Shown one piece after another: positions 229-35,995 of a stretch of DNA of 64,000 bases. Within the stretch, counting starts at the first letter, position 1. Each line of letters starts with the position of its first letter. Below the pieces are notes generated by a model. That model saw only the letters and a list, made by a program, of their open reading frames with translations. It was not told the origin of the DNA and did no database searches. The position numbers and the translations under genes were made by a program. The stretch comes from a virus (Duplodnaviria; Heunggongvirae; Uroviricota; Caudoviricetes): the IMG/VR virus record IMGVR_UViG_3300035034_002381, positions 1-64,000 of that record; one strand, given 5' to 3'.

Positions 229-302
229 GGGCCTTTAGCTCAGTTGGTCAGAGCAGTGCGCTCATAACGCAAAGGTCACTGGTTCGAGCCCAGTATGGCC
301 CA
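229..302 (+). tRNA. tRNA with CAT anticodon (Met, fMet or Ile2 type)
   Basis: Hand-folded cloverleaf: acceptor gggcctt/atggccc, D-arm tagctcagttggtcagagc, anticodon loop ctcataa, T-arm actggttcgagcccagt. Confidence 0.75.
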
Positions 303-351
303 CAACATATTCAGATAAGGTTCTGGGTTCGAATCCCAGTCTGAATACAGC

Positions 352-434
352 ACAAAGGCGAAACAGGTATTCGTAGCGGATTGTAACCCCGCTGTCTTTT
401 GACATTGTGGGTTCGAGTCCCACTTGTGCTACAA
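352..434 (+). tRNA. Class II (long variable arm) tRNA, anticodon GTA (Tyr)
   Basis: Acceptor agcacaa/ttgtgct, anticodon loop ttgtaac, variable-arm hairpin tgtc-tttt-gaca, T-arm gtgggttcgagtcccac; 83 nt. Confidence 0.65.
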
Positions 435-439
435 ATAGT

Positions 440-510
440 CATATAGCTCAATTGGTTGGAGCATCACGCTGATAACGTGAAGGTTATAGGTTCGAGTCCT
501 ATTATGACTA
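440..510 (+). tRNA. tRNA-Ile (GAT)
   Basis: Acceptor agtcata/tatgact, D-arm tagctcaattggttggagc, anticodon stem tcacg/cgtga with loop ctgataa, T-arm ataggttcgagtcctat. Confidence 0.75.
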
Positions 511-511
511 C

Positions 512-586
512 GACGCGGATAAGGCACAGGTAGTCTTGACAGTCTGTAAAACTGTTATGTTATGGGTTCGAGTCCCATGCGCGTCA
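512..586 (+). tRNA. Class I tRNA whose anticodon loop reads ctgtaaa (GTA, Tyr-like). It duplicates the anticodon of the 352-434 gene, so its identity is uncertain
   Basis: Acceptor gacgcgg/gcgcgtc, anticodon stem acagt/actgt, T-arm atgggttcgagtcccat. Confidence 0.5.
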
Positions 587-587
587 C

Positions 588-673
588 TGAAGTGTACCCG
601 AGCGGTTTGCAGGGACCAGACTGATATTCTGGGAGTATTTTACTCAACGTGGGTTCGAATCCCATCACTTCAA
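588..673 (+). tRNA. Class II tRNA (Ser/Leu-type body: 3-bp D-stem, long variable hairpin gagta-ttt-tactc). Its anticodon loop reads ctgatat, so the anticodon is uncertain
   Basis: Acceptor tgaagtg/cacttca, anticodon stem ccaga/tctgg, T-arm gtgggttcgaatcccat; 86 nt. Confidence 0.5.
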
Positions 674-680
674 CCATATC

Positions 681-752
681 GCGGGGTGCCTGGAGAGGTT
701 CCAGATCGGGCTCATAACTCGAATTAACGTGGGTTCGACTCCCACTCCCGCA
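681..752 (+). tRNA. tRNA with CAT anticodon (second Met/Ile2-type gene)
   Basis: Acceptor gcggggt/ctcccgc, D-arm ctggagaggttccag, anticodon loop ctcataa, T-arm gtgggttcgactcccac. Confidence 0.6.
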
Positions 753-755
753 ACT

Positions 756-828
756 AGGATAGTAGCTTAGTGGCAAAAGCACAACTTTTACATGGTTGAT
801 ATCGTGGGTTCGAGTCCCATCTATCCTA
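756..828 (+). tRNA. tRNA-Val (TAC)
   Basis: Acceptor aggatag/ctatcct, D-arm tagcttagtggcaaaagc, anticodon loop tttacat, T-arm gtgggttcgagtcccat. Confidence 0.75.
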
Positions 829-867
829 CAACATGGGGGAAGACAAAGGTAAATTTATTGAAGATTT

Positions 868-940
868 GGGGCTGTAGCAAAGTTGGTCTATGCGGTGGAT
901 TGAAGATCCATGGATGTCGGTTCGATCCCGACCGGTCTCA
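868..940 (+). tRNA. tRNA-Phe (GAA)
   Basis: Acceptor ggggctg/cggtctc (three G-U pairs), anticodon stem gtgga/tccat with loop ttgaaga, T-arm gtcggttcgatcccgac. Confidence 0.6.
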
Positions 941-1020
941 CAAGATTAAAAAATAGAAATCATGAAAAAAACATTAGATTATCTTTAAAACCTAAAGATA
1001 TGAGCAATGGCATTGAACAT

Positions 1021-1094
1021 GGTGTACATAGCTTAGTGGTAGAGCATCGTCTTGTGGTGGCGAGGGGCGTGAGTTCGAATCTCATTGTACACCC
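1021..1094 (+). tRNA. tRNA-His (GTG) with the extra 5' G(-1) pair
   Basis: 8-bp acceptor ggtgtaca/tgtacacc, anticodon loop ttgtggt, T-arm gtgagttcgaatctcat. Confidence 0.75.
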
Positions 1095-1200
1095 ACTTTG
1101 GTCATTTTTGAATTTTGGATAAAAATTGAAAATAACTAAAACTTTCTACATTTAGTATAATATAACCTTGGAAAATTAATAACTTAATCTAAACAAATCT

Positions 1201-2661
1201 ATGGTATTATTACAAATTATTGGAGTACTTGCAATTATTTTCGGTATTATTATGATGTTTTTACATCCTATTGCCAAACGAAAAGAACAGAAAATAATTG
1301 ACGAAAAACAAGCTGCCGAGGAGGCAAGAGAAAAAGGTCAATCATATAGACCTGATTTAAGATCATTAAGTAAACCTAACGCGTTTTCTTTATTATTTAC
1401 TAAAAGTAAATCCTGGTTAGTAATGGGATTAGGTTTAGTAGCAATACTAATTCAAGGATTATTCTTTTATAATCCTGCAGGGACTGCAACGGCAGTCCAA
1501 TATATTTGGGGTGGGGATGATCCTGTTACAACACAAGGGATCAAATTAAAATTGTATGGTAAAACGATACCCATCTCATTTGAGATAGCCATGCAGGATA
1601 TTATTGGTGAAAGCGAAGAATATGAAGAAGGAATTTATTATCGAAAAGGCCAACGAAGAGAATTTGCTGATGCGATTAAAGCAGATATTGCAGCATCTTT
1701 AATTGTTTCTGTTGATTACGCTAATGATTCTCTATTCTTGGATATGGCTGATAAAAATAGATCCGAGAAAAAATTGGTTTATGCTCGTATTTATCCAGTT
1801 TATGATCAAGCATTAAAGAATACTTGCAAGCTTATGGACGCCCAAGATTATATTTCCGGTGCATCCTCTCAGTTTGACTATTACTTGAAAGATCAAATGG
1901 AGAACGGTATGTATTTAACTGAGGAAGTTTATGAAGATGTTAAAACTATGCCTATGACTTTGGGTGACTCTCTATCAAGAACAGTTGCTGCGGGTGTGAT
2001 TAATGACGATAAACGTGAGAAGAAATATCGTATTCGTAAAGATCATAATGGTGAACCGATACGAGATGCATCTAACTCATTAAAGAGATATGGTTTAACT
2101 GTGCAACAAGCTGCTGTAACGAATATTGATTGGGAAGAATCCTTTGATGCTCGACTGCAACTACAAAAAGAACAAGTTGCACAAACTCAAATTGAGAAAC
2201 AAGAGGCGGAAAAGGAATACTATGCAACACAGAAAACTATTGCAAAGGGTGAAAGAGAAAAGGCTGAAGTGCGAGTAACATTGGAAAAGGCGCAGTTACA
2301 ACAAACGATTGCGGCGGAAACAAAAGCTAAATCTGCAAAATACAAAGAGCAGGAAGAGATTAATTTACTTGCTGCGGCTAAAAAGGAAGCTGAAAGAATT
2401 CGTGTGACTGCTGATGCTGATGCATATGAAATTATGAAAAAAGTTCAGGTAGGTATTACTCCCGAAACTGAGCTACAAATGAGATTGGATGCTGGAATTG
2501 CAGAAAAAGCGGCAATTGCTGGACCCACAGGTCTAAAACTACCTGATAATTTGACAATCATGACTATGCCAGGAAACGGAAAATCATCTGATGCTGGAAT
2601 TCTTGAATCAATTATCGGAGCCGAAATCTTAAAAGGTAACGGAAACATTAAAACAAAGTAA
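1201..2661 (+). CDS. SPFH / band-7 (flotillin-like) membrane protein
   Basis: N-terminal TM helix (LLQIIGVLAIIFGIIMMFL) and a C-terminal A/E/K-rich flotillin-type coiled coil (EKQEAEKEYYATQKTIAKGEREKAEVRVTLEKAQLQQTIAAETKAK...AKKEAERIRVTADADAYEIMKK). Confidence 0.6.
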   Translation: MVLLQIIGVLAIIFGIIMMFLHPIAKRKEQKIIDEKQAAEEAREKGQSYRPDLRSLSKPNAFSLLFTKSKSWLVMGLGLVAILIQGLFFYNPAGTATAVQYIWGGDDPVTTQGIKLKLYGKTIPISFEIAMQDIIGESEEYEEGIYYRKGQRREFADAIKADIAASLIVSVDYANDSLFLDMADKNRSEKKLVYARIYPVYDQALKNTCKLMDAQDYISGASSQFDYYLKDQMENGMYLTEEVYEDVKTMPMTLGDSLSRTVAAGVINDDKREKKYRIRKDHNGEPIRDASNSLKRYGLTVQQAAVTNIDWEESFDARLQLQKEQVAQTQIEKQEAEKEYYATQKTIAKGEREKAEVRVTLEKAQLQQTIAAETKAKSAKYKEQEEINLLAAAKKEAERIRVTADADAYEIMKKVQVGITPETELQMRLDAGIAEKAAIAGPTGLKLPDNLTIMTMPGNGKSSDAGILESIIGAEILKGNGNIKTK

Positions 2662-2714
2662 AACTTTTTACTGTAAAAGGTATATAAATAATCAAATAAC
2701 AAAAACAAACCAAA

Positions 2715-3176
2715 ATGGTAGATTTCAACACAATCACAGAGAAAAACGAATCTGAAGCAAAAGCAAAATTCAGAGAAAATGGTACCGGAGTTAAAATGGG
2801 AACATTTGCTTCTGGTGACGAAAGCAAATGGGAAGATCTAATTAACACAGGTCTTTTCAGTAATCAAGCTATCAAAAACAGAATGCTTGACGTTGCACGC
2901 AGAATTAACACTATGTGTAATGACGAACTTTTAGGTAATCTTGACGTGGCTTTTACTGTTACTGATGCTCGTGATAATAAGGTGGAATTTACCTACATGG
3001 ATATTTATACTTTTTTACGAGCGGCATACCGTTACAGAAGTGAAACTAAGAATTATAGAGAAATGAAAGCTAGAAAAGCTGAACTTGAAAAATTCACTGA
3101 AGAAACTAAGACCGTAAAAGAAAAACGTGCTGAGGCACTCAAGGAACTTAAAGAACTTGAAAAGTCTCTTGCATAA
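2715..3176 (+). CDS. Hypothetical protein with a coiled-coil C-terminus
   Basis: 153-aa ORF with an upstream TAAAACTTT...TATATAA promoter-like motif. Confidence 0.5.
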   Translation: MVDFNTITEKNESEAKAKFRENGTGVKMGTFASGDESKWEDLINTGLFSNQAIKNRMLDVARRINTMCNDELLGNLDVAFTVTDARDNKVEFTYMDIYTFLRAAYRYRSETKNYREMKARKAELEKFTEETKTVKEKRAEALKELKELEKSLA

Positions 3177-3360
3177 AAGTTTCTGTCTCTGGGAGACCTA
3201 ACACTGATGATGACAAGCGTCTTGAAAACCTATTTAATCCATAAACTTGGGAAGAAAATGAGAGTGAGTAACTCGAATGAATCGAATGTATGATTCAAAA
3301 GGTATTGGTAGGTTAATTCTTATCAATACCTCTAAAATTCTTCTTAGAATCCATAAAACT

Positions 3361-3425
3361 TAGCTCATTGGTTGGGCATTTGTATAAGAACAAAAGGAGC
3401 GGTTCAATTCCGTAGACTAGAAGAA
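3361..3425 (+). ncRNA. Degenerate tRNA-like element (D-arm-like tagctcattggttgggc, AT-rich anticodon-like hairpin, T-arm-like gcggttcaattccgt)
   Basis: Hand-folded. It lacks a clean acceptor stem and is preceded by a CTTAGAATCC motif. Confidence 0.3.
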
Positions 3426-3430
3426 TTTAA

Positions 3431-3560
3431 TTGCCGGGTTAGTGTAAGGGTCAACACACGTAAAGTAAACATAGTGAACTTTACGAATCACTTAGAATAA
3501 CTAACTATACAATCCATATGGAGGACGGATAACTGGTTCGAGTCCAGTGCCTGGCACAAA
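3431..3560 (+). ncRNA. tRNA-like module of about 130 nt and a candidate Y-RNA-like RNA. It has acceptor-like ends gccggg/cctggc and a D-arm-like gtgt-aagggtca-acac. A 7-bp stem cgtaaag/ctttacg with a 13-nt loop sits in the anticodon position. A 47-nt insert precedes the T-arm ctggttcgagtccag
   Basis: Hand-folded. It is too long for a tRNA and lies 1 kb upstream of the Ro60 ortholog on the same strand. Confidence 0.4.
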
Positions 3561-3584
3561 TTAAATTGCAGAGTGGTGTAGTGG

Positions 3585-3650
3585 CAGCACACGTAAACGC
3601 CGATTAGTGAAGCATTTACGTTACACTAAAAAATTGGCAAATCTCGTTCA
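3585..3650 (+). ncRNA. Second, related tRNA-like half-module (gcagagt, D-arm-like gtgt-agtggcag-cacac, 7-bp stem acgtaaa/tttacgt with a 17-nt loop). No T-arm follows
   Basis: Shares the D-arm and cgtaaa-stem architecture of the 3431-3560 module. Confidence 0.3.
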
Positions 3651-3789
3651 AAAGAAATTTTCAAATGTAACAACAGAAATTGAAGATGTTGATGAATGGG
3701 TATATTTATATGTAAGAATTTAAAACTTTTTTCAAACTAAAGAATATAAAGAACAATAATACCAATAAAAATTCGACTTAGAATACCTA

Positions 3790-3880
3790 AAACTAAAGTT
3801 TAAATTAGCTCATTGAGCATATTTTTTTTATAAATACGGTCTAGGTTAATCCCTAGAAATTCAAACGTTTAGTCGAATTT
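3790..3880 (+). ncRNA. Degenerate tRNA-like element (acceptor-like gtttaaat/attcaaac, D-arm-like tagctcattgagca, A/T-only anticodon-like hairpin, T-arm-like tctaggttaatccctaga)
   Basis: Hand-folded; preceded by a CTTAGAATACCTAAAAC motif. Confidence 0.3.
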
Positions 3881-3901
3881 TTATTGGTTTTTTAAAATAT
3901 T

Positions 3902-3974
3902 GCGGGGTGGACTGGAGTTGGATCCAGCTTGGTCTCATAAGCCAAATCACGGGAGTTCGAATCTCTCCCCCGCT
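3902..3974 (+). tRNA. tRNA with CAT anticodon (third Met/fMet/Ile2-type gene)
   Basis: Acceptor gcgggg/ccccgc, D-arm ctggagttggatccag, anticodon stem ttggt/gccaa with loop ctcataa, T-arm gggagttcgaatctctc. Confidence 0.65.
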
Positions 3975-4280
3975 ACTTGTTAATAGGCATTTTATCAGTA
4001 ACACTGGAAGTTTTGGCCGAATAAATTAAAAAGTAAAATGTGTGTTCGTGTGTTAGTAAAGAGCTGCACGAATTAAATTTAATAAGTTCTGACTAGTGGT
4101 TTCGGTTTAATAGGGAAAGATACTTACCACTGAAAAAACTAAAATGTATACCCTGTAGATTTTCAATATTTATCTAACTAAATATTGCGTGTTAGAAAGT
4201 TCTAGATTAACTGTGCACAGGTTATTTAGTTCTTATAAATTTTAGAATGCACTTAACAATGTAGCGTTAATCTAAAAAAT

Positions 4281-4353
4281 GCCTCGGTAACTCAGTTGGT
4301 TAGAGTATCTGCTCGACATGCAGAAAGCCACAGGTTCGAATCCTGTTCGGGGT
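4281..4353 (+). tRNA. tRNA-like gene with a G-U-rich acceptor (gcctcgg/tcggggt) and anticodon loop tcgacat (GAC, Val-like; position 33 is C). Its backbone is paralogous to the 10905-10978 gene
   Basis: Canonical D-arm actcagttggttagagt and T-arm acaggttcgaatcctgt. Confidence 0.5.
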
Positions 4354-4528
4354 ACTTATTCTACTTAGAATACTTAAACTTTATAAATTGGTTCGATTCC
4401 AATTTTTATTGGTCTTTTTCTGTCAATTAAGTATCAAATAAATTTTTAATATATTGATTGATTTGAATATATTAAACAACCTCTCTTAGAAAATCTAAGT
4501 TAGAGAAGTTAAATCATCAAAAACAAAA

Positions 4529-6472
4529 ATGATGTCTACAAAAACAAAATCTTTATCAAAAGAAAGAGTTGCCTCTGTTTCAGGAGATAAACCAAGACTC
4601 CCAAGAACTCTTGAAACTCTTCAAGGTTTAAGAACAGCTCAAGGATTATCTGACGCGCAAATTGCGAATATGTTAGATAACGCATTATCAGAAACTTCAA
4701 GTAACCATATTATATATGTTCTTGAAAGATTAATGTTACACATTGGTGATGTGAGTCGACAACACAATATGTTGAAAGAATTGGGAATTAATTCTAAATC
4801 TGGTGGCGCACAAGAACGTGGGGTATTCCGATCTATTTTACGATGGTGGGAAAAAACTTTGCCTGAATCATTTGCAGAAAATCTTCGAGTATTCGCTGAA
4901 TTCTCAGTTTTGGAAAACTTGATGTTTTATGAACTTAAAACTGAAAGAGCAACTGGAAAATTAATTGGAAAGGAAATTTTGTTTCCTATGCCAAGTAAAG
5001 TACATGAATTTCTAGCGAACGAAATTCACAAAAATAGAAATGTGAATCTTATTGCTAAGCATTTACCAAAATATGACACTGGTAAAAGTCGAACCACTAA
5101 GAAAACCATGCATATTAAAGACGGTAAGGATAGTTTCATGTGGAAACTTCCTGAAGGTAAAGCTTGGGTTAAATTAAATGGTGATCTAATCGAAGGAGAA
5201 TCTGTTAAGATTACTCAAGGTGATGTAGTTTCATATCCTCGTGATAAATCTTCACATGTTTTAGAAAAACAAAGATTCGTTAATTCTTGGATTTCTAGTT
5301 TCTGTAAAGTTATGGGATGGTCAATTACTGATTATAACAATTTCCGTAAACAACAAAACACACCGGAACAAAAATTCTCAAGTAAACGTGTTTTAAACAT
5401 GCCGAAATCAGATTTCTGGAAAATGCTTGATGGTTTGACTTCTGGTCAAAGATACAGAGTTTCTAGAATGTTAGATTTCAATGCGGAAAAGTGGGGAGAA
5501 TTACCGAAATGGTATGATTTGTGGGAAGGTAACCAAGAAAAAGTAGCCGATAAACTTCGACAAGCTGCAGCTGATGGTGATACTGAAGCAACAGAAAAAT
5601 TGAAGAAAGAATTCAAGGTTAAATCTACTGGAAAAAACACTGTTGATTTATTGAAAGATATGTTAACAGGTAATCATGACGATAGATTCATTAACAACAC
5701 TTATCAATCTATGATTGAGAATATGGATATTGTTGCGAATGTTTTTCCAGTAATTGATGGTTCCGCATCTATGGATTGCCAAATTGGTGGAGGATGGAGT
5801 CCTCGAAGTTCTCGAAGTTCTACGGATAGACAACTTTCAAATAGAGCTGTCGCATATGCTATGGCAATTGCATTTTCTACTAGAAACCCAGTACCAGGAT
5901 TCCGTAACACGTTCGGATGGTTCTCCAGAAACTTTCACATTGTTGGAAAATCTAAGTATGTGAACAATGCACCTAATCAATACGTTGATTCTGGAAGTTA
6001 TACTAAAAAGGTTAATGAGTTCAATGTTTTATCTGAAACTAATACTTTCACTGAAAACTACTCAAACTTGAGAAAATCTGATCCAGGAGAAATATCATCT
6101 ACAAATATGGGTTCTGTGATTACTCACTTCACAAATTTAGTAGAAACTGGTAAATTTCATGTTGAGGATCTTCCATCTGCGTTACTTTTTATCACAGATA
6201 ATGAAAACAACACAGGAATTAGTCCGAAGGAAGCGTTGGCAATAGCTAACAAAATTGGATGGTCTCCATTGGTTATTTTCTGGGGGTTAACTAAAGTTCC
6301 AAGCAACATGATGAATCAGTATAAGGGAATTCCTAACTGCTTACTTGTTGGAGGATTTAATGAATCAGTACTTTCACAAGTACTTAGGGGTATTAAATCT
6401 GGTTCAGTTGATCCAGAGGATGAAATCTGGAGTATTGTCGAAAATAAAAGATATGCAGTAATTACTGAGTAA
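4529..6472 (+). CDS. rsr: Ro60 (Rsr) ortholog: an N-terminal helical TROVE-like region plus a C-terminal von Willebrand factor A domain with a MIDAS motif
   Basis: MIDAS DGSASM (human Ro60 has DVSASM), followed by NRAVAYAMAIAFSTRN (Ro60 ASTVAAAMCMVVTRTE). Then LLFITDNENNTG (Ro60 FIVFTDNETFAG) and NCLLVGGFNESVLSQVLRGI (Ro60 MLDMCGFDTGALDVIRNF). The 647-aa size is about 400 aa of helical domain plus about 240 aa of vWA. Confidence 0.75.
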   Translation: MMSTKTKSLSKERVASVSGDKPRLPRTLETLQGLRTAQGLSDAQIANMLDNALSETSSNHIIYVLERLMLHIGDVSRQHNMLKELGINSKSGGAQERGVFRSILRWWEKTLPESFAENLRVFAEFSVLENLMFYELKTERATGKLIGKEILFPMPSKVHEFLANEIHKNRNVNLIAKHLPKYDTGKSRTTKKTMHIKDGKDSFMWKLPEGKAWVKLNGDLIEGESVKITQGDVVSYPRDKSSHVLEKQRFVNSWISSFCKVMGWSITDYNNFRKQQNTPEQKFSSKRVLNMPKSDFWKMLDGLTSGQRYRVSRMLDFNAEKWGELPKWYDLWEGNQEKVADKLRQAAADGDTEATEKLKKEFKVKSTGKNTVDLLKDMLTGNHDDRFINNTYQSMIENMDIVANVFPVIDGSASMDCQIGGGWSPRSSRSSTDRQLSNRAVAYAMAIAFSTRNPVPGFRNTFGWFSRNFHIVGKSKYVNNAPNQYVDSGSYTKKVNEFNVLSETNTFTENYSNLRKSDPGEISSTNMGSVITHFTNLVETGKFHVEDLPSALLFITDNENNTGISPKEALAIANKIGWSPLVIFWGLTKVPSNMMNQYKGIPNCLLVGGFNESVLSQVLRGIKSGSVDPEDEIWSIVENKRYAVITE

Positions 6473-6491
6473 TCTTAATTTTCAAATTACT

Positions 6492-6527
6492 AAGGAGAGG
6501 CATTTTTGCCTCTCCTTTTTTTATGTT
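6492..6527 (+). terminator. Rho-independent terminator (aaggagaggca-ttttt-gcctctcctt plus TTTTTTT)
   Basis: Perfect 11-bp stem followed by a T-run, immediately after the Ro60 ORF. Confidence 0.8.
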
Positions 6528-6576
6528 TAAAACTATATCAATCTTAGATATATAATACAAATAAATTAAATTAAAT

Positions 6577-7140
6577 ATGAAAAATGTAAAAAACTTTCGT
6601 GAGTTTCTGAACGAGAATCGAGTCGAAAAGAGATTAGCTAGTCTGGACGCAGAATATACTATTGACAAAAAGTTGTGTAAACAATTAATGGATGTGGGAG
6701 AGCAAATAGATTATATATACAATAATTTAGATTTGCCACACTCTGACTTTGCCACTTCTAATTTTATACCACCCGAAATTGAAAACGATGATAAAACAGC
6801 GAGTGATTGGGTAGAATCTGAGAAGGCTCTTATAAGAAGTGAACTAAAATCTAAAGAATCTGAATATAAAAAAATTCTTAGAAAAATACAATCTAAACAT
6901 TCGTATATTAATGATGTAATTGAATATCTTAATCAAACTAATTTAGGTTTTACTTTAGAAAATACATTTATTGATAAAATAAACAGAAGAAATGATATCA
7001 TAAATACTGTTGTAATAAAAAGTTGGTATGGGTATGCTAAAGCTTCAAGAAAAGAATTAGAAAGATATAAAATAACACCTGAGCAACTTGCAGGTACTAT
7101 ATTATCAATGCGAGCAGTCGCTGATGAACTAACATATTAG
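6577..7140 (+). CDS. Hypothetical protein, member of the MKN-K-F-EF N-terminal paralog family
   Basis: N-terminus MKNVKNFREFLNE; promoter-like motif TTTAAAACTATATCAATCTTAGATATATAA upstream. Confidence 0.5.
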   Translation: MKNVKNFREFLNENRVEKRLASLDAEYTIDKKLCKQLMDVGEQIDYIYNNLDLPHSDFATSNFIPPEIENDDKTASDWVESEKALIRSELKSKESEYKKILRKIQSKHSYINDVIEYLNQTNLGFTLENTFIDKINRRNDIINTVVIKSWYGYAKASRKELERYKITPEQLAGTILSMRAVADELTY

Positions 7141-7224
7141 TAATAAAGTACTAAGTGATATTTGTAAACAATTAAAAAATAAGAATATCGAATGTGGCTT
7201 TGATGATGCATTCGACCCTAGTTA

Positions 7225-7425
7225 ATGGAAAGTTTTAAAAGTATACTCGAATCTAAAGATTCTGATAAACTCGCAAAAGAGATCAATAATGCAATCATTA
7301 AAATTGATGATTCTATGTCATACAAAGATTTTGCAGCTGCAGTTATCAAAATAATGAAAGAAGAATACGGAGAACACCTATATACAGAATTCTTAGGAAT
7401 TTTACAAAAAAATCTAAAGAAATGA
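7225..7425 (+). CDS. Small hypothetical protein, paralog of the 47731-47925 ORF
   Basis: N-terminus MESFKSILESKDSDKL versus MKSFKKVLENKEADKL. Confidence 0.4.
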   Translation: MESFKSILESKDSDKLAKEINNAIIKIDDSMSYKDFAAAVIKIMKEEYGEHLYTEFLGILQKNLKK

Positions 7426-7601
7426 AGACTTTTAAAGAATTTATAAACGAATCGGAATATATGGTGGTGAATGGAAAGAAAACGCCGAGATAACAGCTAG
7501 ACAATTATCTTCTGGGTTGGTTATTAGCATTGAACCTACAAAAATAAAAGTATTAGTTAGTACATCATCAGAACTAGATATCGATGTTTTAATGTCTAAC
7601 A

Positions 7602-7790
7602 ATGATAAAATTGAATATAGAAGTTATAGACGACTCGCCGTATACAAAACCAGGATCTACACAAAGTTTTATTAGAATAAAACTGAATGGAAAAACTATA
7701 TATGAAGATAAAGGAGCTAATTATGCCGACGCACCAAGTGACGAGATTATTAGAGCTTATGAAGAGGTGTATAAAATTAGATCCAAATAG
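7602..7790 (+). CDS. Small hypothetical protein
   Basis: 62-aa ORF from the six-frame track. Confidence 0.3.
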   Translation: MIKLNIEVIDDSPYTKPGSTQSFIRIKLNGKTIYEDKGANYADAPSDEIIRAYEEVYKIRSK

Positions 7791-8028
7791 GGAATACGTT
7801 TGCTTCTATACACAATAATTCAAAATATAAGACTTGAAAATGAAAAGATTTTTTAGAGTTGCTAGTATTACATCATTAATTGTTCTGTGTCTATTCACAT
7901 TTTTAATGCACGCGTTTCCATGGGAATGGTCAACTGATATTAGATTATATTGCATATTCACAATGGTTTCTTCATCGATTGTCGCGTATTTCGTAAGCCG
8001 TTAATAAAATTTAACATATAGATAACAG

Positions 8029-8058: not shown

Positions 8059-8273
8059 TATATTTATACTGAATTTAAAAACTCAAAATAAATGTCAAGA
8101 GAAAATATGGATTATATGGGCGATGCAGTCTACGCAGAATACACGGGATGGTCAATTGATTTACGAGTCAATGATCATCGGAATCCTGTCGCTGTCGTTT
8201 TAGAAGAACTAGTCTTACAAAATTTAGTCGATTTTGCTAGACGAAAAGGTCTTAAAATCAAATAAATTATGAA

Positions 8274-8636
8274 ATGAAAGTAATTTATTCTGCAGTTTTT
8301 GTTGATAAGTCTACCCTTATAAAAAAATTTAAACCGGTATTTGATAACATTCATGCTCATCACATGACTATTGAATTTAGACCAGAATCAACAGATAATC
8401 TGGATATTGACAAAAATTACAAATTGAAAATTATCGGTAGATTAATTACAGACAAAGTTGATGTTCTTCTTGTTGATGATGGAGGCATCAGTAAAAATGA
8501 ATTCCCACACATTACAATTTCTATAGCTGATGGTGTTAGGCCTTTCGAAAGTAATACCGAAATCAAAAATAATTATTCCAAAATAACTAAACTTCGTGGA
8601 GAAATAACAGGCAAAATCGGAGTTTTCACCGCATAA
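8274..8636 (+). CDS. Small 2H phosphoesterase superfamily protein (LigT / 2',3'-cyclic phosphodiesterase or Acb1-like)
   Basis: Two H-x-T-x motifs, HHMTIEF and PHITISI, about 70 residues apart in a 120-aa protein. Confidence 0.5.
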   Translation: MKVIYSAVFVDKSTLIKKFKPVFDNIHAHHMTIEFRPESTDNLDIDKNYKLKIIGRLITDKVDVLLVDDGGISKNEFPHITISIADGVRPFESNTEIKNNYSKITKLRGEITGKIGVFTA

Positions 8637-8645
8637 ATCTTAACT

Positions 8646-8870
8646 ATGAAAAAGGTAACATTTCTAATTTTAATATTGTTCAACATTAATTTATGGGCAC
8701 AAGAACAACCAGATACAGTTTATGTTCTGAAAAGTTTTACAGTCAAAGGTGTGAGAGCTGATCCTAAAACACCGATCACACAAAAAACAATAGACAAGAA
8801 ATTTATTGAACGCAATTATTTTGGTCAAGAAATTCCTATTCTTTTAAATACCACACCATCAATAAATTAG
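8646..8870 (+). CDS. Small secreted protein
   Basis: Signal peptide MKKVTFLILILFNINLWAQ. Confidence 0.45.
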   Translation: MKKVTFLILILFNINLWAQEQPDTVYVLKSFTVKGVRADPKTPITQKTIDKKFIERNYFGQEIPILLNTTPSIN

Positions 8871-9116
8871 GTATGGAAAAATCTCAAGACTTTGAACCAA
8901 CCGAACCAGAAGAAATGTATTAAAATAATTGAAAATAACTCTTCCAGATTAAAACTTTTTGATTACTTTTGTATATATACTGTATATTTAAACAAACAAT
9001 AATGAAAACACAAATCAACATAACTACCAGTTATTCTTTAAGAAGCTTATGTACGTCGCTGAGACTATATGAGACAGGGTATCTATGTTGATCAAACATA
9101 TTTTTGATTACAAACT

Positions 9117-9150
9117 AAACCCTGTCTATTTAATTAGACAGGGTTTTTTT
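9117..9150 (+). terminator. Rho-independent terminator (aaccctgtcta-tttaatt-agacagggtt plus TTTTTTT)
   Basis: Hairpin plus T-run preceding the third tRNA cluster. Confidence 0.75.
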
Positions 9151-9155
9151 ATTTG

Positions 9156-9245
9156 GAAGATAAAGCAGCTGCATTGGAGCGGCGACTAGCCTTGAAAACT
9201 AGGTCTCGGAGAAATCTGGGTGGGGTTCGAGTCCTCTGTCTTCCT
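9156..9245 (+). tRNA. Class II tRNA-Ser (TGA)
   Basis: Acceptor ggaagat/gtcttcc, anticodon loop cttgaaa, long variable arm, T-loop ttcgagt; 90 nt. Confidence 0.55.
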
Positions 9246-9276
9246 CAAAGTTTTAGTTCATTGACATATTAATATT

Positions 9277-9362
9277 AGAGGATGCGGTAATGGTGGTTAT
9301 TACAGTATCTTGGAAAGGTACCGATCGTTTATTCGGTCAGGGTTCGACTCCCTCATCCTCTG
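9277..9362 (+). tRNA. Class II tRNA-Ser (GGA)
   Basis: Acceptor agaggatg/catcctct, anticodon stem gtatc/ggtac with loop ttggaaa, variable arm ccgatcgtttattcggtc, T-arm agggttcgactccct. Confidence 0.65.
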
Positions 9363-9493
9363 CTATGTTCTTCTTAGAATAACTAATTTATGTAAATGTG
9401 AGTTCGAATCTCATCAAATGCTTTTAGCATCTGTAGCCAAATGGTTAGGCAATATACTTGAAATATATAACAAACGATTAGAAGAACAACATG

Positions 9494-9566
9494 CTTCCAT
9501 AGTATAAAGGTTCATTATTCCTGTTTTGTAATCAGGCGATATCGGTTCGATTCCGATTGGGAGCTC
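9494..9566 (+). tRNA. tRNA-Thr (TGT)
   Basis: Acceptor gcttcca/tgggagc, anticodon loop tttgtaa, T-arm atcggttcgattccgat. Confidence 0.6.
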
Positions 9567-9714
9567 AATGAATATGATGTTTATTTAGATCCTAAAAATG
9601 ATTATCTTATTGGTATAGATAGTAAAAAAATTGAAAAGGTCGAAGAATTGTATAATGTGCGTAATAATAGACAAGGATAATTTATCTTGGAATGATATTC
9701 AAAATAAAATAAAT

Positions 9715-9795
9715 GTTTCAGTGGTGGAATGGTAGACACGTCGGTCTTAGGAACCGATGCCGAAAGGCGTGAGAGTTCGAGTCTCTCCTGGAATA
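9715..9795 (+). tRNA. Class II tRNA-Leu (TAG), canonical architecture
   Basis: D-arm gtg-gaatggtaga-cac, anticodon stem tcggt/accga with loop cttagga, variable arm gccgaaaggc, T-arm gagagttcgagtctctc. Confidence 0.65.
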
Positions 9796-9796
9796 C

Positions 9797-9876
9797 ACTC
9801 TGGTGGATTAGGTAAATTGGTACAGCTAAACGGCTTAGACCCGTATCCCTTCTGGGTTCGAATCCCAGTCAGAGTA
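9797..9876 (+). tRNA. Atypical 80-nt tRNA-like gene, family member 1. The anticodon-like hairpin is acgg-cttagac-ccgt (TAG). There is no variable arm, and a 7-nt insertion separates the acceptor from the 3-bp D-stem
   Basis: Acceptor actctgg/tcagagt, conserved block tggattaggtaaattggtacagctaa, T-arm ctgggttcgaatcccag. Confidence 0.5.
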
Positions 9877-9881
9877 CAAAT

Positions 9882-9961
9882 GCTCCTGTGGTTTATGTAA
9901 ATTGGCACAGCTAAGCGGCTTAAACCCGCAACCTTTATGGGTTCGAGTCCCATCAGGAGTA
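9882..9961 (+). tRNA. Atypical 80-nt tRNA-like gene, family member 2; anticodon-like hairpin gcgg-cttaaac-ccgc (TAA)
   Basis: Acceptor gctcctg/caggagt, conserved block tggtttatgtaaattggcacagctaa, T-arm atgggttcgagtcccat. Confidence 0.5.
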
Positions 9962-10056
9962 CAAAAGTTTATCAACGTCTTGAGTCAAGTTGGATGATGA
10001 CAAAAAGGCTAACGGCAGAAGTGAATCCATCGCACTGTGTTACATAAACTTTATCT

Positions 10057-10129
10057 GGCCAGGATTCTCAATTGGACGGGACTCTGTCTTCTAAACAGAT
10101 GTTTGTGGGTTCGAATCCCATCTTGGTCT
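10057..10129 (+). tRNA. tRNA-Arg (TCT)
   Basis: Acceptor ggccagg/cttggtc, anticodon stem tctgt/acaga with loop cttctaa, T-arm gtgggttcgaatcccat. Confidence 0.6.
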
Positions 10130-10135
10130 CTAAAC

Positions 10136-10209
10136 GCAGGTATACCTAAGTGGTTTAAAGGAGCGGATTGCAAACCCGTTATTCATTGGTTCGAATCCAA
10201 TTACCTGCT
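10136..10209 (+). tRNA. tRNA-Cys (GCA)
   Basis: Perfect acceptor gcaggta/tacctgc, anticodon loop ttgcaaa, T-arm attggttcgaatccaat. Confidence 0.7.
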
Positions 10210-10214
10210 CACTT

Positions 10215-10297
10215 GGAAGGTAACTTGATGGTGATAGAGGTAGTTTGCTAAACTACTGGCCGTTTACTCGGTCGAGGTTCGATTCCTCTGCCTTCCG
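10215..10297 (+). tRNA. Class II tRNA-Ser (GCT)
   Basis: Acceptor ggaaggt/gccttcc, anticodon stem gtagt/actac with loop ttgctaa, variable arm ggccgtttactcggtc, T-arm gaggttcgattcctc. Confidence 0.7.
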
Positions 10298-10301
10298 CTA
10301 T

Positions 10302-10379
10302 GCTCCTGTGGATTATGTAAAAGCACAGCTAACACCTTGAGGAGGTGATCCTTTGTGGGTTCGAGTCCCGCCAGGAGTA
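10302..10379 (+). tRNA. Atypical tRNA-like gene, family member 3; anticodon-like hairpin cacc-ttgagga-ggtg (GAG)
   Basis: Acceptor gctcctg/caggagt, conserved block tggattatgtaaaagcacagctaa, T-arm gtgggttcgagtcccgc. Confidence 0.5.
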
Positions 10380-10404
10380 CAAAGAAGCAAAGAGTTAGTT
10401 AGGT

Positions 10405-10479
10405 TAGACTGGCTTGTTATGTGGTGAAATTGGTAAACGCGAGCGCTTTGGTGCTTAGTAACCTTAACACTTCTTATTT
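10405..10479 (+). ncRNA. Partial tRNA-like element: a Leu-type D-arm gtg-gtgaaattggtaaac-gc plus a hairpin, with no T-arm. It abuts the next tRNA
   Basis: Shares its D-arm sequence with the 10788-10899 element. Confidence 0.3.
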
Positions 10480-10553
10480 GCTGAGTTAGTATAGTCGGTT
10501 TATTACGATACCCTGGTACGGTATTAACACCAGTTCGATTCTGGTACTCAGCT
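10480..10553 (+). tRNA. tRNA-Thr (GGT)
   Basis: Perfect acceptor gctgagt/actcagc, anticodon stem atacc/ggtat with loop ctggtac, T-arm accagttcgattctggt. Confidence 0.7.
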
Positions 10554-10565
10554 CATGAAAAATAT

Positions 10566-10645
10566 GCCTCTGTGGATTATGTAAATTGGCACAGCTAACG
10601 GTTTCAAACTCCGATCTTTTATGGGTTCGAATCCCATCAGAGGCA
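10566..10645 (+). tRNA. Atypical tRNA-like gene, family member 4; anticodon-like hairpin cgg(t)-ttcaaac-(t)ccg (CAA)
   Basis: Perfect acceptor gcctctg/cagaggc, conserved block tggattatgtaaattggcacagctaa, T-arm atgggttcgaatcccat. Confidence 0.5.
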
Positions 10646-10661
10646 CAAGTAGGAGAAATTT

Positions 10662-10746
10662 AGTCCAGTGGCGAAACAGGTATACGCACAAGATTTAAGC
10701 TCTTGCTTCCATTGAGGAATTGCGGGTTCGATTCCCGCCTGGATTA
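10662..10746 (+). tRNA. Class II tRNA-Leu (TAA), canonical architecture
   Basis: Acceptor agtccag/ctggatt, D-arm gcg-aaacaggtata-cgc, anticodon stem caaga/tcttg with loop tttaagc, variable arm ttccattgaggaa, T-arm gcgggttcgattcccgc. Confidence 0.65.
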
Positions 10747-10787
10747 CTAAGTTAGTACGGGTTCGATCCCCGTCTTGGCTACTAAAT

Positions 10788-10899
10788 TTGACCGTGGTGA
10801 AATTGGTAAACACACCCTTAAATCAGGGAGTATGAGAATATGTACTTGAAGCTGACGCAGAACATCATACATATGTAGGTTCGAATCCTATCGGTCGAA
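10788..10899 (+). ncRNA. 112-nt tRNA-like RNA with a roughly 45-nt extra stem-loop (atatgta...tacatat) inserted before the T-arm
   Basis: Acceptor ttgaccg/cggtcga, Leu-type D-arm gtg-aaattggtaaa-cac, anticodon-like ccc-ttaaatca-ggg, T-arm gtaggttcgaatcctat. Confidence 0.4.
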
Positions 10900-10904
10900 C
10901 AAAT

Positions 10905-10978
<74 letters not shown>

Positions 10979-11325
10979 CTATCTAAAACTTTATTCAATT
11001 TCCATAATATAATGTGTAACTAAACTTTATAGAAATGGAAAAAATACTAATGTCTGAAATTTTGACTTATGACAACTTCGACGACGGTTTACCTGAAGAA
11101 TATGAATTTGTCGATTCTGAACAAACATATTTTGATGGTGAAAAAGGCTTTGTTAATATCGAAGCTATTATCAGAAGAGAATCAGACTCACAATTTTTAA
11201 AGTAAAATACACCGATTATGGAAAAGGTGAAAATGATCTTATGGAAAGTGTGGGCGAACCTGTAACTCAAAAATCCAAAACAATTTTCTACTATGTAACT
11301 CAAAAATCCAAAACAATTTTCTACT

Positions 11326-17119: not shown

Positions 17120-19195
17120 ATGAACAAAGATTCTAATGTATTATTAATACTTGAAAGATCTTCATCAAATCTAGATGTTAACAAGGAATCGGGTGATTAT
17201 ATTCTCGAAGGTATTTTTGCTCAATTTGGAGTTGAAAACAATAACAAAAGGATTTATGAGGAAAAAGAGTATTTACCACATCTCGAATACTTAAAAAAGA
17301 AAATTTCAGAAAATCGATTGATGGGAGAACTTGATCACCCAGAAAAATTTGAAATTGCTTTAGACAAAGTATCTCACGTAATTGAGAATATTGAATATGA
17401 TCAAGCAAAACGCCAGATTAAAGGGCGTGTACGTATTTTAGATACGCCATCCGGAAAAATCGCAAAGAGTCTAATCGACTCTAATATTCCTATTAGTATT
17501 TCATCACGAGCTGCTGGTTCTGTGAGTGAAAATAAAACTGTTTCTATTAAGAGAATTTTTACTTATGATTTAGTTGCTGATCCAGGTTTTGAAGATGCAC
17601 AATTATCAAGAATAAATGAATCATTTGGTTTAGACAACGAAAATAATCTACAAATTTTTGATGCTTCTAGATGGGACAACAATTTTTCGTTTGATGAAAA
17701 AGAAAAAGAAAAGCCTGTTGAGGCAATAAAAGAAAATAAAGAAAATACTACAGATATGAAAGAATTTGTGACAATTGAAAGCATGGAACGCTATTCATTA
17801 ATGGTCAAAGAAGAAATTGCTAAAATCAATACACGATTAGAAACTCTGAATGAGAGTAATGCTAATTCTGATGAAACAGCAGAACTTAGAAAAACCGTTG
17901 ATAATTTAGTAGGGTATGTTAATGAAATGGCTACCGAAATTAATCAAAACAGAGAATACATGTCATATACTGCTGAAATGCTTGACGAAAGTATTTCTTG
18001 GTCAGAAAATGAGATCGGTAATCAAGTTACTAAATTAATTGAATATACTGAATCTGAATTGGCTGTTCATCTTGATGGTTTAATTGAACACAATAACTAT
18101 CTTGCAGAAAAATTAAACACGACTATTGGATACGTTAATGAAGAATTGGCTCCAATTTTAGATGAGTCTATTAATCACAATGATTATTTAGTTGAACAAA
18201 TTGCTAATAACCGAAAATATACTGAGTATCTTGCTGAAAATGCTGTAGACTCAACAAATTTTGATTCGTTAGTAGAATATACTGAACATGTATATGAAAA
18301 TGCTGCTGGAAAATTTGAAGGTAAAATTAATGAATCTGCAACTGCTGAGGATGTAATTAAAAAACATAAACTTAAAACACATCACGATGTTGCTAAGTTT
18401 ATAGGAGATTTTTATGATTTACCAGATACAATTAAAGGATCTACCGATAAATTCACATTTAAAGACGTTGAGGACAACGTAATTAAAGTTGATGGTAAAG
18501 CAGGAACAGTAGACGGTAAAAAATTATCTCTGGCGGGATTGGTTGATCTTATGTCAGGTGGTGATTTTGATCTTCTTATTGAAAATCAAGCTAATAAAAT
18601 TAACGAAAATAAAAACGTATCAACAGATATTGAAAATCGATACATGAGTATCAATGAAAAAATTGACGCGGCTCTTGAGCAGATCAAGAAAACAAAGACT
18701 GAAGAAATCACAGAGTCTAAACGTCATCCTTTCACCAAACTACTCAACGAAAGTAATAGAGCTGCTTTCACTGAGTTAGGAAAAACCGAAAAAGAAAAGG
18801 TTTCAAAAGCTCTAAATGAAAACGGTATTTTAAGTACTGTAAAACTTAACGAAAAATTCACTTCATTGTTAGAAGGTAATTTCGAAATTGTTGAAGAGCC
18901 TAAATGGTTATCTGAAGCACCAGACAAGTATAAAGCTATTTTTGAAAGTTTGAATGAGGAAACTCAGGATAAACTTAGAGCTCAAGCTTCATGGTACGAA
19001 GGTAAACTTAAATCTCCTTATCAAATCGAAAATTTCTGGGCAACTAGAGGACTGAACGAAGACGTTGAGTTGAAGAATCTGAAAGACGATGCTGATGTAA
19101 AACTTATTAAAGAAAGTAATGATAGATCTAAAGATCTGGGTTATTCTTCTGATCGAGTTGCTGCAATTAAACAAGGTCTGAAAAGATTCAAATAA
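17120..19195 (+). CDS. Probable prohead protease fused to a scaffolding-type coiled-coil domain
   Basis: Sits immediately upstream of the major capsid gene. The N-terminal roughly 200 aa contain EGIFAQFGVENNNKRIYEEKEY...GELDHPE (T4 gp21 / S77-like). The rest is an acidic, heptad-rich segment typical of scaffold proteins. Confidence 0.5.
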   Translation: MNKDSNVLLILERSSSNLDVNKESGDYILEGIFAQFGVENNNKRIYEEKEYLPHLEYLKKKISENRLMGELDHPEKFEIALDKVSHVIENIEYDQAKRQIKGRVRILDTPSGKIAKSLIDSNIPISISSRAAGSVSENKTVSIKRIFTYDLVADPGFEDAQLSRINESFGLDNENNLQIFDASRWDNNFSFDEKEKEKPVEAIKENKENTTDMKEFVTIESMERYSLMVKEEIAKINTRLETLNESNANSDETAELRKTVDNLVGYVNEMATEINQNREYMSYTAEMLDESISWSENEIGNQVTKLIEYTESELAVHLDGLIEHNNYLAEKLNTTIGYVNEELAPILDESINHNDYLVEQIANNRKYTEYLAENAVDSTNFDSLVEYTEHVYENAAGKFEGKINESATAEDVIKKHKLKTHHDVAKFIGDFYDLPDTIKGSTDKFTFKDVEDNVIKVDGKAGTVDGKKLSLAGLVDLMSGGDFDLLIENQANKINENKNVSTDIENRYMSINEKIDAALEQIKKTKTEEITESKRHPFTKLLNESNRAAFTELGKTEKEKVSKALNENGILSTVKLNEKFTSLLEGNFEIVEEPKWLSEAPDKYKAIFESLNEETQDKLRAQASWYEGKLKSPYQIENFWATRGLNEDVELKNLKDDADVKLIKESNDRSKDLGYSSDRVAAIKQGLKRFK

Positions 19196-19213: not shown

Positions 19214-21007
19214 ATGAAACTTTTAAACGAACAAAAGATCTATGATGAGTGGGCTCCTATGCTAGAGGAGGAAACTTCAATCAAAGATTCTTCAAAATTG
19301 GGATGGATGACTAAATATTGTCACTACCATTCATTAAATGAAGCATTCACTGCACCTGCAGCTGGATTGCTTAACACGCCAGGTATGGGTAATGTAACTC
19401 CTGCTGGAGCTGCTGCCGGTGGTGCTAATGCATTCTACGGAAGTACTACTACTGGTTCAGGAGATAAATTCCCTTCATTATTGCCACTATCTATTCAGGT
19501 AGCTGCAAGAACTGTAGGATTTGATATCGTTCCTGTTATTCCTATGAACGGACCTTCGGGGGTTCTTACATACATGGATTATGTCTATGCTGGTGGAAAA
19601 GGAGCATTCGGAGCACCTCCAGGTGCTGCAGGTGCTGCAAACCCAGGTCTTAACGCTTACGCTGACAAGCCGTTAGTATTCAAAATCCAACTTGTTGGAG
19701 ATGAGAAAACTGCTTTCGATGCTGCTGCTGCGGGTGATGAATTCTTATTTGCTTCTGGTGCACTTGCTGCAACTGGAAACACACTACGTGTTGCTAAAAT
19801 CGGTCCTTCTAGAATCGACGGTCACTCTATTTTTAGAGTAATTGGAGAATCTGGTGATGCTGATGCGACTGGCGGTGCAGCTGCTGCTGTAGCGACAACT
19901 CTTACATCGCCACAATCTATCACATTGGCTTCTGTATTTACAGGAACTGCTGCGATGATTACTGCGGCTGGTGCTTTAGTTGATGCTGCTGATTCAGTAG
20001 TTAATCGTCCAGAACTTGTTAAAGCTCTTGAAGATCACGTTCAAGGTTTTGCTGGTGCAGGTCCAAACGATGATGAAGCATGGTCAGGAAATGCGACTGA
20101 TGGTACTGTATCTTACGAACCAATGCGAAGAGGTGTAGGTGAAGAGCAGTACTTCAGAACTATGGGACTTCAAGCTTTCACGAAATTCATTGAAGCTGAA
20201 ACTTTCCAAGTTGCTGCTAATGTTACTACAGAACAAATTCAAGATTTACAACGTCAGTATGGAATCGATGTGATTGCAATGATCGAGAACTCATTAGTAA
20301 ATGATATCTCTCAATCTATTAACAAGCACATTCTTTCTAGAGCTTTCGCTCTTGGATGGGGTGCAAACCTTACATTCAGAGATGTTGAAGGTGCAAACCT
20401 TAACCTTGAATTGGTAAACACTGGAACTGGTGTTACTGCAACTCCTGCTTACATTGATAAGACTGGAGTAGGTACTGCATCTGTATATCCTGCTTTCCAA
20501 GAATTTGCTGGAGCTGCTGCTGCTGCATCATTGGAAAACCAAGCAACATTCCAACGAAGAGTATATTCTAAAGTACTTGCTGCTGGAAACGTTGTTACTC
20601 AAAGAGGACGTAGAGGACCTGCAAACTTCATTGTTACTAACCTTCAGTTAGCGACAGCGTTGCAAGATTCTGCACAATTCTCTTGGGCACCAATGGCAAA
20701 CACCATTAACCAAAACAACGGTTCGCTTTACCCAGTGGGTACTGTAGCCGGAATGACTGTTTATGTAGATCCTAACATGGGATTCTCTGATAACAGAATT
20801 CTTGTTGGACGTAAAGGTGCTGATGAAGAACCAGGACTTAAATTCATGCCTTACTTAATGGCTGAATCAATCCAAACAATTGCTGAAGGTACAATGGCTC
20901 CGAAAGTTGCCGTAAAATCACGTTATGCTTTAGTTGAAGCTGGACACCACCCAGAAACAATGTACTTTACTATTGCAGTAAATGTACCTGTAGGTGGATT
21001 AGTATAA
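19214..21007 (+). CDS. Major capsid protein
   Basis: 597-aa Ala/Gly-rich protein directly after the protease/scaffold gene, followed by a strong terminator, with codon usage typical of highly expressed virion genes. Confidence 0.6.
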   Translation: MKLLNEQKIYDEWAPMLEEETSIKDSSKLGWMTKYCHYHSLNEAFTAPAAGLLNTPGMGNVTPAGAAAGGANAFYGSTTTGSGDKFPSLLPLSIQVAARTVGFDIVPVIPMNGPSGVLTYMDYVYAGGKGAFGAPPGAAGAANPGLNAYADKPLVFKIQLVGDEKTAFDAAAAGDEFLFASGALAATGNTLRVAKIGPSRIDGHSIFRVIGESGDADATGGAAAAVATTLTSPQSITLASVFTGTAAMITAAGALVDAADSVVNRPELVKALEDHVQGFAGAGPNDDEAWSGNATDGTVSYEPMRRGVGEEQYFRTMGLQAFTKFIEAETFQVAANVTTEQIQDLQRQYGIDVIAMIENSLVNDISQSINKHILSRAFALGWGANLTFRDVEGANLNLELVNTGTGVTATPAYIDKTGVGTASVYPAFQEFAGAAAAASLENQATFQRRVYSKVLAAGNVVTQRGRRGPANFIVTNLQLATALQDSAQFSWAPMANTINQNNGSLYPVGTVAGMTVYVDPNMGFSDNRILVGRKGADEEPGLKFMPYLMAESIQTIAEGTMAPKVAVKSRYALVEAGHHPETMYFTIAVNVPVGGLV

Positions 21008-26562: not shown

Positions 26563-26973
26563 ATGAAAGCCTTTACTTATGTTATAGATATTGATGACAC
26601 TATCAATATTACCGATAGAGATGAAAATAATATAGGACTGTATTCTCAGTCTCGGCCGATACTTAAAGTTATCAATAAAATTCGAAGACTTAAAAAAGAA
26701 GGCCACAAAATCATACTTTTTACTGCTAGAGGTATGCGTACATTTAATAATGATGTCAAAAAAATCGAAGATTTTCATAGAGAAACACTCGTTAAATGGT
26801 TAAATGACCATGAAGTCCCTTATGACGAACTACAGTTCGGTAAACCATGGGGCCCCCATGTAATATATGTCGATGATCGTGCTGTTACTATTAACCAATT
26901 TGTTTTGGGTGGTCCCGAAAATCACAGAAGTTATACACACATTAACAAAACAGTTATAAATGATGAATTATAA
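26563..26973 (+). CDS. HAD-superfamily phosphatase
   Basis: Motif I VIDIDDTI (DxDxT), motif II ILFTARG, motif IV GKPWGPHVIYVDDRA. Confidence 0.6.
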   Translation: MKAFTYVIDIDDTINITDRDENNIGLYSQSRPILKVINKIRRLKKEGHKIILFTARGMRTFNNDVKKIEDFHRETLVKWLNDHEVPYDELQFGKPWGPHVIYVDDRAVTINQFVLGGPENHRSYTHINKTVINDEL

Positions 26974-35989: not shown

Positions 35990-35995
35990 AAAGAT

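Follow-up and report, generated by a model that had tools for sequence, protein, structure and literature searches.

A compact 2H phosphoesterase encoded by a large T4-like phage and its candidate role in RNA-end healing

The stretch of DNA analysed here (the window) comprises positions 1-64,000 of the IMG/VR record IMGVR_UViG_3300035034_002381, a member of Caudoviricetes. On its plus strand, positions 8274-8636 (stop codon included) hold the ORF of a predicted compact 2H phosphoesterase of 120 aa in solo form, which starts with ATG, ends with TAA and allows no upstream extension. Two putative catalytic motifs were identified in the protein. The first, HMTI (H30-M-T32-I, residues 30-33; positions 8361-8372, plus strand), is preceded by the invariant H29, sits at the beginning of strand E32-35 in the AlphaFold2 model and is aligned with H44xT46 of Acb1 and with the HCTT motif of CNPase. 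The second, HITI (H79-I-T81-I, residues 79-82; positions 8508-8519, plus strand), is preceded by the conserved P78, lies within strand E79-84 of the model and is aligned with PHITLS of Acb1 (H113) and AHITLG of CNPase. H30 and T32 of the first motif and H79, I80, and T81 of the second are invariant in the homolog alignment A3, and the two motifs of the window protein stand in the contexts AHHMTIEF and PHITISIA.

An ortholog of equal length, 80% identical to the window protein, occupies the same syntenic position on a contig from a different sample (L010). For this one pair, the Nei-Gojobori method gave a dN of 0.10 and a dS of 0.88, with a dN/dS of 0.12. ORF 8274-8636 is a real gene under purifying selection, and a truncated gene or pseudogene is ruled out by the same-length ortholog, the dN/dS value and the compactness seen throughout the family. 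The small size is a family trait rather than the result of truncation, since both motifs are retained across the family at a median His-to-His spacing of 49 residues. The 120-aa ORF with its two motifs, as described in the initial annotation, is therefore borne out by the ortholog and by alignment A3. Its remark that the protein is smaller than LigT also holds, as the product is much smaller than the LigT/ThpR-type 2',3'-cyclic phosphodiesterases, has no LigT-type match in Pfam and is structurally farther from these enzymes than from CNPase.

The window phage is a large T4-like myovirus, with a prohead protease at 17120-19195, a Gp23-type major capsid protein at 19214-21007 and a G+C content of 32% in the window. 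Its complete genome is probably much larger than the 64 kb covered here; genomes of more than 500 kb occur among its relatives by capsid protein. The nearest GenBank relatives of the capsid protein (around 40% identity) belong to the Lak megaphages of Prevotella and to phages of Tenacibaculum, Chryseobacterium, and Flavobacterium, and judging from the hosts of these relatives the host is probably a member of Bacteroidota. ARAGORN identified 21 tRNA genes, 16 of which were confirmed at the Rfam gathering score, in two arrays (229-4355 and 9277-10979) that flank the 2H region; several anticodons are repeated (Met-CAT three times; Tyr-GTA, Ile-GAT, and Arg-TCT twice each). The tRNA genes had been put forward as context for an RNA-repair role, an argument that does not discriminate. 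In T4, about 1.4 kb separate Acb1 (gene 57B; L014, T4 AF158101 73952-74410) from the tRNA gene cluster, so a small 2H gene close to tRNA genes is no evidence for tRNA repair. The neighbour at 4529-6472, previously read as Ro60, proved instead to be a 647-aa DUF2828/DUF7788-type protein with a vWA-like C-terminus that falls in PHROG 850 ('RNA-binding protein'). A Y-RNA partner for such a Ro-like protein was sought with Rfam, which returned only tRNAs. In a different phage lineage, the 2H gene has a homolog of this protein (L001, 13770-15230; E 9e-11) about 5 kb away. Downstream, a 74-aa ORF with a signal-peptide-like N-terminus (8646-8870) begins 10 nt past the 2H stop codon; its resemblance by eye to a TonB-dependent receptor fragment was unsupported in Pfam and PDB searches.

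Structure prediction with AlphaFold2 on the family alignment produced a confident model (pLDDT 85.2, pTM 0.79) of a bilobed alpha+beta 2H fold, with secondary structure elements in the order beta-alpha-beta-beta-beta-beta-alpha-beta. The top matches of the fold search were almost exclusively 2H enzymes. The top 50 Foldseek matches in the PDB were CNPase structures plus one fungal Trl1 entry (6u05); 115 of the 120 residues superpose on CNPase, and the structural match to Usb1 is much weaker than that to CNPase. In the viral-model search (BFVD), giant-virus 'RNA ligase' proteins of 765-771 aa gave the best matches and Acb1 ranked sixth (TMq 0.47). Among 2H enzymes, the predicted fold is clearly closest to that of CNPase/Trl1-CPD, and the two HxT motifs would face each other across the active-site cleft. 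The motifs and the model together identify the window protein as a putative minimal 2H phosphoesterase, in agreement with the superfamily assignment made earlier; in the profile alignments, H30 and H79 coincide with the two catalytic histidines of Acb1 and likewise with those of CNPase. The compact domain may be the smallest natural 2H scaffold, which would make it attractive for structural and mechanistic work on a minimal 2H active site.

In Pfam, the only signal of the window protein is to tRNA_lig_CPD (PF08302), with 17.8 bits against a cut-off of 23, and it covers residues 74-99, that is, the region of the second motif only; PF05881 did not match it. Judged by this score, the window protein would not count as a threshold-passing member of PF08302. 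Several relatives exceed the 23-bit cut-off, namely L024 (40.3), P0138 (27.9), P0153 (25.4), L026 (24.0), and P0156 (23.6). Besides this sole Pfam signal, the window protein shares the 2H fold and the two HxT motifs with CNPase and the Trl1 CPD module (PF05881, PF08302). It differs in being about half as big as CNPase (120 aa versus around 215 aa; the Pfam CPD model has 250 positions) and in its His-to-His spacing of 49 residues, versus 80 in the CNPase sequence used.

Family alignments of Acb1 and of CNPase were built for profile comparison, the CNPase seed sequence being checked against PDB 1woj. The broad family profile of the window protein aligned with the Acb1 profile over 69 columns (probability 86%, E 4.9e-6), placing H30 on H44 and H79 on H113. 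With the CNPase profile it aligned over 66 columns (probability 75%, E 2.5e-5), placing H30 on the histidine of HCTT and H79 on that of AHITLG. Between the Acb1 and CNPase profiles themselves there was no recognisable match (probability 0.6%). The family therefore occupies an intermediate position between Acb1 and CNPase by sequence, as the two E-values are similar and the two reference profiles are mutually invisible. The 86% probability against Acb1 amounts to homology at the superfamily level, and a single-sequence hhalign comparison of the window protein with T4 Acb1 reached a probability of 10.8%. The CNPase/Trl1 side is favoured only by the fold and the Pfam CPD model, not by profile distance.

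Like Acb1 (PF23474), the window protein is a small solo phage 2H protein with an HxT/HxT tetrad and a second motif of the form xPHIT[LI]S. However, the Acb1 model PF23474 does not match it even at E <= 10, although the model is found in 77 of the 78 T4 Acb1 homologs listed. An insert of about 16 residues before motif 2 of Acb1 is absent from the window protein. In Acb1, a C-terminal lid (residues 145-152) closes over the ligand (PMC9117128); the window protein stops at residue 120, directly after its last strand E105-119, and so has no counterpart of the lid. The missing PF23474 match and the missing lid together place the window protein outside the curated Acb1 family. With regard to the stacking aromatics of Acb1 (Y12, W74, and F107), Y5 is near-invariant in the window family and an aromatic residue is usual before P78 in alignment A3; the hhalign alignment, which spans residues 26-95 only, shows no Trp equivalent.

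Nine homologs of 120-148 aa, each from a metagenome, came out of a word-indexed search; H29, H30, T32, P78, H79, and I80 are invariant in their alignment. An exhaustive profile search extended the family to 1,030 cluster representatives at E <= 1e-3, with 295 at E <= 1e-10 and 72 at E <= 1e-30. Each representative stands for a 50% identity cluster, and the family thus holds at least 1,030 clusters. Of 136 complete domains, 134 carry the two HxT motifs. Solo proteins of 120-160 aa make up 50 of the 150 best representatives, and 35 others are proteins of at least 1,000 aa (maximum 7,041 aa) in which the domain is embedded. The commonest fusion partner is ART-PolyVal, found in 9 of the 69 scanned multidomain relatives, and LPD23, PARP, GNAT, nucleotidyltransferase, and radical-SAM domains also occur; one 3,106-aa relative is flanked by other large ORFs on a phage-like contig. 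These large relatives are polyvalent proteins. The window protein is accordingly a solo copy of a very large family that is embedded in polyvalent proteins, a relationship absent from the initial annotation. It is 46-53% identical to the polyvalent-embedded copies versus 38% to the ligase-linked copy of contig L027 (see below).

Occurring both solo and within giant multidomain proteins that carry ART-PolyVal and LPD23, the family would fit by description the polyvalent 2H domains and solo counterparts of Iyer, Burroughs, Anand, de Souza, and Aravind (2017; PMC5512222). According to these authors, such 2H domains, whether polyvalent or solo, are never found in association with RNA ligases; RNase or signal-degrading roles were favoured for them. 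The family is otherwise essentially uncurated, with a marginal tRNA_lig_CPD signal in Pfam, a match to a PHROG of unknown function, and neither a solved structure nor a GenBank phage match. PDB sequence searches with the window protein, the close-family profile, the broad profile and P0138 gave nothing significant, CNPase appearing only at E 1.1. The window protein and a consensus-like member found no match by tblastn in 50,697 GenBank phage records, and the plasmid collection yielded a single weak match, in Alteromonas. Gene neighbours vary among the phages with close homologs. A conserved downstream partner was rejected, as the ORFs of 166-170 aa that follow the gene in L001 and L005 show no obvious mutual resemblance on visual comparison and nothing in the window corresponds to them. 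Because the domain is used so widely inside polyvalent proteins, establishing its substrate would annotate hundreds of giant phage proteins together; the choice lies between RNA ends with a 2',3'-cyclic phosphate (RNA>p) and immune nucleotides.

Fusions in the relatives give hints to the function of the domain. P0053 (302 aa) joins the 2H domain to a P-loop kinase, and P0015 shows a kinase association as well. The top PDB matches of the P0053 kinase (4gp7 and 4jst, E 3e-8) are labelled 'Metallophosphoesterase' and are presumably the polynucleotide kinase domain of C. thermocellum Pnkp; its best matches also include Capnocytophaga Pnkp1 (4xrp, E 5e-4). Furthermore, the domain is fused to an HD domain in P0153 (394 aa) and to a MazF/PemK endoribonuclease in P0151 (262 aa), and HAD_PNKP is present in one relative. 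The C-terminal region that follows the 2H domain in P0138 (454 aa) contains GGGPFDHHG, which is DHH-like by eye. A further likeness of the relatives to CNPase and Trl1 is that the domain is paired with a kinase of the AAA_33/Pnk type and, in a single lineage, also with an RNA ligase; RNA-repair fusions of this kind have not been reported for Acb1. Against this likeness, the profile similarity to CNPase is remote, and the window form is solo, with no kinase or ligase adjacent to it.

The linkage to a ligase was found in three IMG/VR contigs (L027, L028, and L029). They encode a 308-aa kinase-2H fusion (2H domain by profile, E 1.3e-13) whose kinase is closest to T4 polynucleotide kinase (1ly1/1ltq, E 4e-7), followed by a 101-aa ORF and then by a 374-aa ligase of the RNA_lig_T4_1 type (64.3 bits); in L027 this cassette spans 5437-7835. 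The L027 motifs AHHMTIQF and PHITIAIS match those of the window protein. From its sequence, the cassette is predicted to be a repair module of the T4 Pnkp/Rnl1 type, with the compact 2H domain in the place of the HAD phosphatase, and the three Trl1 activities would be divided among genes. It would represent a natural variant of the T4 tRNA-repair pathway. The position of the kinase-2H fusion just upstream of an Rnl1-type ligase differs from the description of Iyer et al. (2017) and counters their statement that no polyvalent or solo 2H domain is accompanied by an RNA ligase. The L027 cassette is followed closely downstream by an IS605 OrfB/TnpB-type gene on the opposite strand (8080-9276).

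In the window itself, no RNA ligase, RtcB or Tpt1/KptA was found among the scanned ORFs of the 64 kb. A P-loop kinase (Walker A at aa 10) combined with a HAD-type phosphatase (DMDGV at aa 169) is encoded at 35015-35989 on the plus strand (324 aa; AAA_33/Zeta_toxin plus NT5C HAD), and its similarity to the T4-Pnk-like kinase of L027 is weak (27% identity over 127 aa, E 0.001). The Pnkp-like enzyme mentioned in the initial annotation is thus present as far as the Walker A and DMDGV motifs go, but it lies 27 kb from the 2H gene. It is a possible partner of the 2H enzyme. It may instead serve NAD salvage, since it sits between a PRPP-synthetase-like gene and Nampt. This NAD-salvage-like cluster (34123-37714) comprises the PRPP-synthetase-like ORF, the kinase-HAD ORF and a Nampt-type phosphoribosyltransferase (NAPRTase family, E 8e-38), and may constitute an NAD-reconstitution counter-defence. 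Two other ORFs are candidates for further RNA-end-processing proteins, namely a 136-aa HAD protein at 26563-26973, with HAD_PNKP below threshold (23.6 versus 27.6 bits), and an Rv2179c-like 3'-5' exoribonuclease at 33398-34009. On the whole, the context arguments drawn earlier from the neighbouring genes are weaker than they were stated to be.

An RNA 2',3'-cyclic phosphodiesterase for RNA-end healing is the reading best supported by the predicted fold, the CPD match in Pfam and the links of the relatives to kinases and a ligase; we assign it a probability of about 0.5. We infer the substrate, the regiochemistry of the product, the partners in the window phage and the biological role as follows. 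The protein would work as a metal-independent 2H enzyme in which H30 and H79 serve as general acid and base, with T32 and T81 holding the phosphate in the cleft between the two small beta-sheet lobes. RNA ends with a 2',3'-cyclic phosphate would be hydrolysed to a phosphomonoester, as by CNPase and the Trl1 CPD module, both of which yield the 2'-phosphate. Such ends form on tRNAs that metal-independent host nucleases have cleaved, and the 2H step would then provide the 3'-end healing within a phage RNA-repair pathway. A 5'-kinase/phosphatase, possibly the product of ORF 35015-35989, and a ligase not found among the scanned ORFs of the window would supply the other steps. Several observations stand against an RNA-repair role. 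The scanned ORFs of the window yielded no RNA ligase, RtcB or Tpt1, the gene neighbours are not constant between phages, and a T4-type Pnkp phosphatase can heal cyclic ends without any 2H enzyme. The window protein is nearer to the polyvalent copies than to the ligase-linked one, and the profile similarity to Acb1 is no weaker than that to CNPase. The RNase or signal-degrading roles favoured by Iyer et al. (2017), who saw no ligase association, also weigh on this side.

The choice between an RNA cyclic phosphodiesterase and an Acb1-like nuclease, which the initial annotation had left undecided, therefore leans towards the former through the fold, the Pfam signal and the relatives, and away from curated Acb1 membership. 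An anti-signalling nuclease of a 2H lineage separate from Acb1, which would cleave the cyclic or 2'-5' messengers of CBASS, type III CRISPR or OAS-like systems in the manner of Acb1 or of viral 2',5'-phosphodiesterases, is a possible but distinctly less probable reading. The gene resembles Acb1 in encoding a small solo 2H protein in a region of small phage ORFs, and the Acb1 profile match with both HxT motifs aligned, the shared xPHIT[LI]S second motif and the lack of a ligase in the window all fit such a function. The frequency of the domain in ART-PolyVal polyvalent proteins, predicted to be delivered as counter-defence, fits it as well, and a role of this kind has been proposed (Iyer et al. 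2017, PMC5512222). The failure of PF23474, the fold clearly nearer to CNPase/Trl1-CPD, the missing lid, and the relatives joined to polynucleotide kinases and linked to an RNA ligase argue in the other direction. The reading stays live because Acb1 is no more distant than CNPase, the window copy is nearer to polyvalent copies and no ligase is in view. In its broader form, it would make the family a second phage lineage of anti-signalling nucleases, independent of Acb1, in Bacteroidota and marine hosts, acting as a polyvalent-delivered or an early solo protein; we hold this broader claim to be doubtful. If true, such enzymes would destroy cyclic or cyclic-phosphate-terminated messengers (CBASS, type III CRISPR cOA or 2'-5'-linked), and the kinase- and ligase-linked copies would be a side branch co-opted for RNA repair.

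The remaining explanations keep RNA or nucleotide chemistry and change its purpose. An offensive or processing enzyme, either a Usb1-like 3'-trimming RNase or a CPDase that turns host RNA>p into 2'-phosphates unsealable by RtcB and so locks in damage to host RNA, appears unlikely. A Usb1-like RNase was suggested for polyvalent 2H domains by Iyer et al. (2017, PMC5512222), and the MazF/PemK fusion of P0151 and the toxin-like domains beside the 2H domain in polyvalent proteins would suit an attack on RNA. Nevertheless, CNPase is structurally a far better match than Usb1, the association with kinases and a ligase indicates repair and not damage, and the investment of the phage in tRNA supply (21 genes) fits the protection of translation. 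Very unlikely, in our estimate, is an activity on cyclic phosphates of NAD or ADP-ribose, such as ADP-ribose 1'',2''-cyclic phosphate (Appr>p) or 2',3'-cyclic NADP, with a tie to NAD metabolism or ADP-ribosyltransferase chemistry. In its favour, Appr>p is an established substrate of 2H enzymes (PMC9503650), ART-PolyVal leads the list of fusion partners, and genes for Nampt, a PRPP-synthetase-like protein and a NUDIX protein lie in the window. However, ART-PolyVal is generally frequent in polyvalent proteins, 26 kb separate the 2H gene from the NAD cluster, and Tpt1/KptA was not found in the window. The ART domain lies 5, 64 or 236 residues after the 2H domain, or 1,092 residues before it, and a fixed 2H-ART dyad as a KptA-like pair is ruled out by this variable placement.

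In the distal part of the window (39000-64000), a pooled Pfam scan detected a SET domain, a TET-associated glycosyltransferase (weak), a thymidylate-synthase-like protein, a C5 DNA methylase, an S1 domain, a NUDIX protein and several glycosyltransferases. This content suggests genes for DNA hypermodification and surface glycans.
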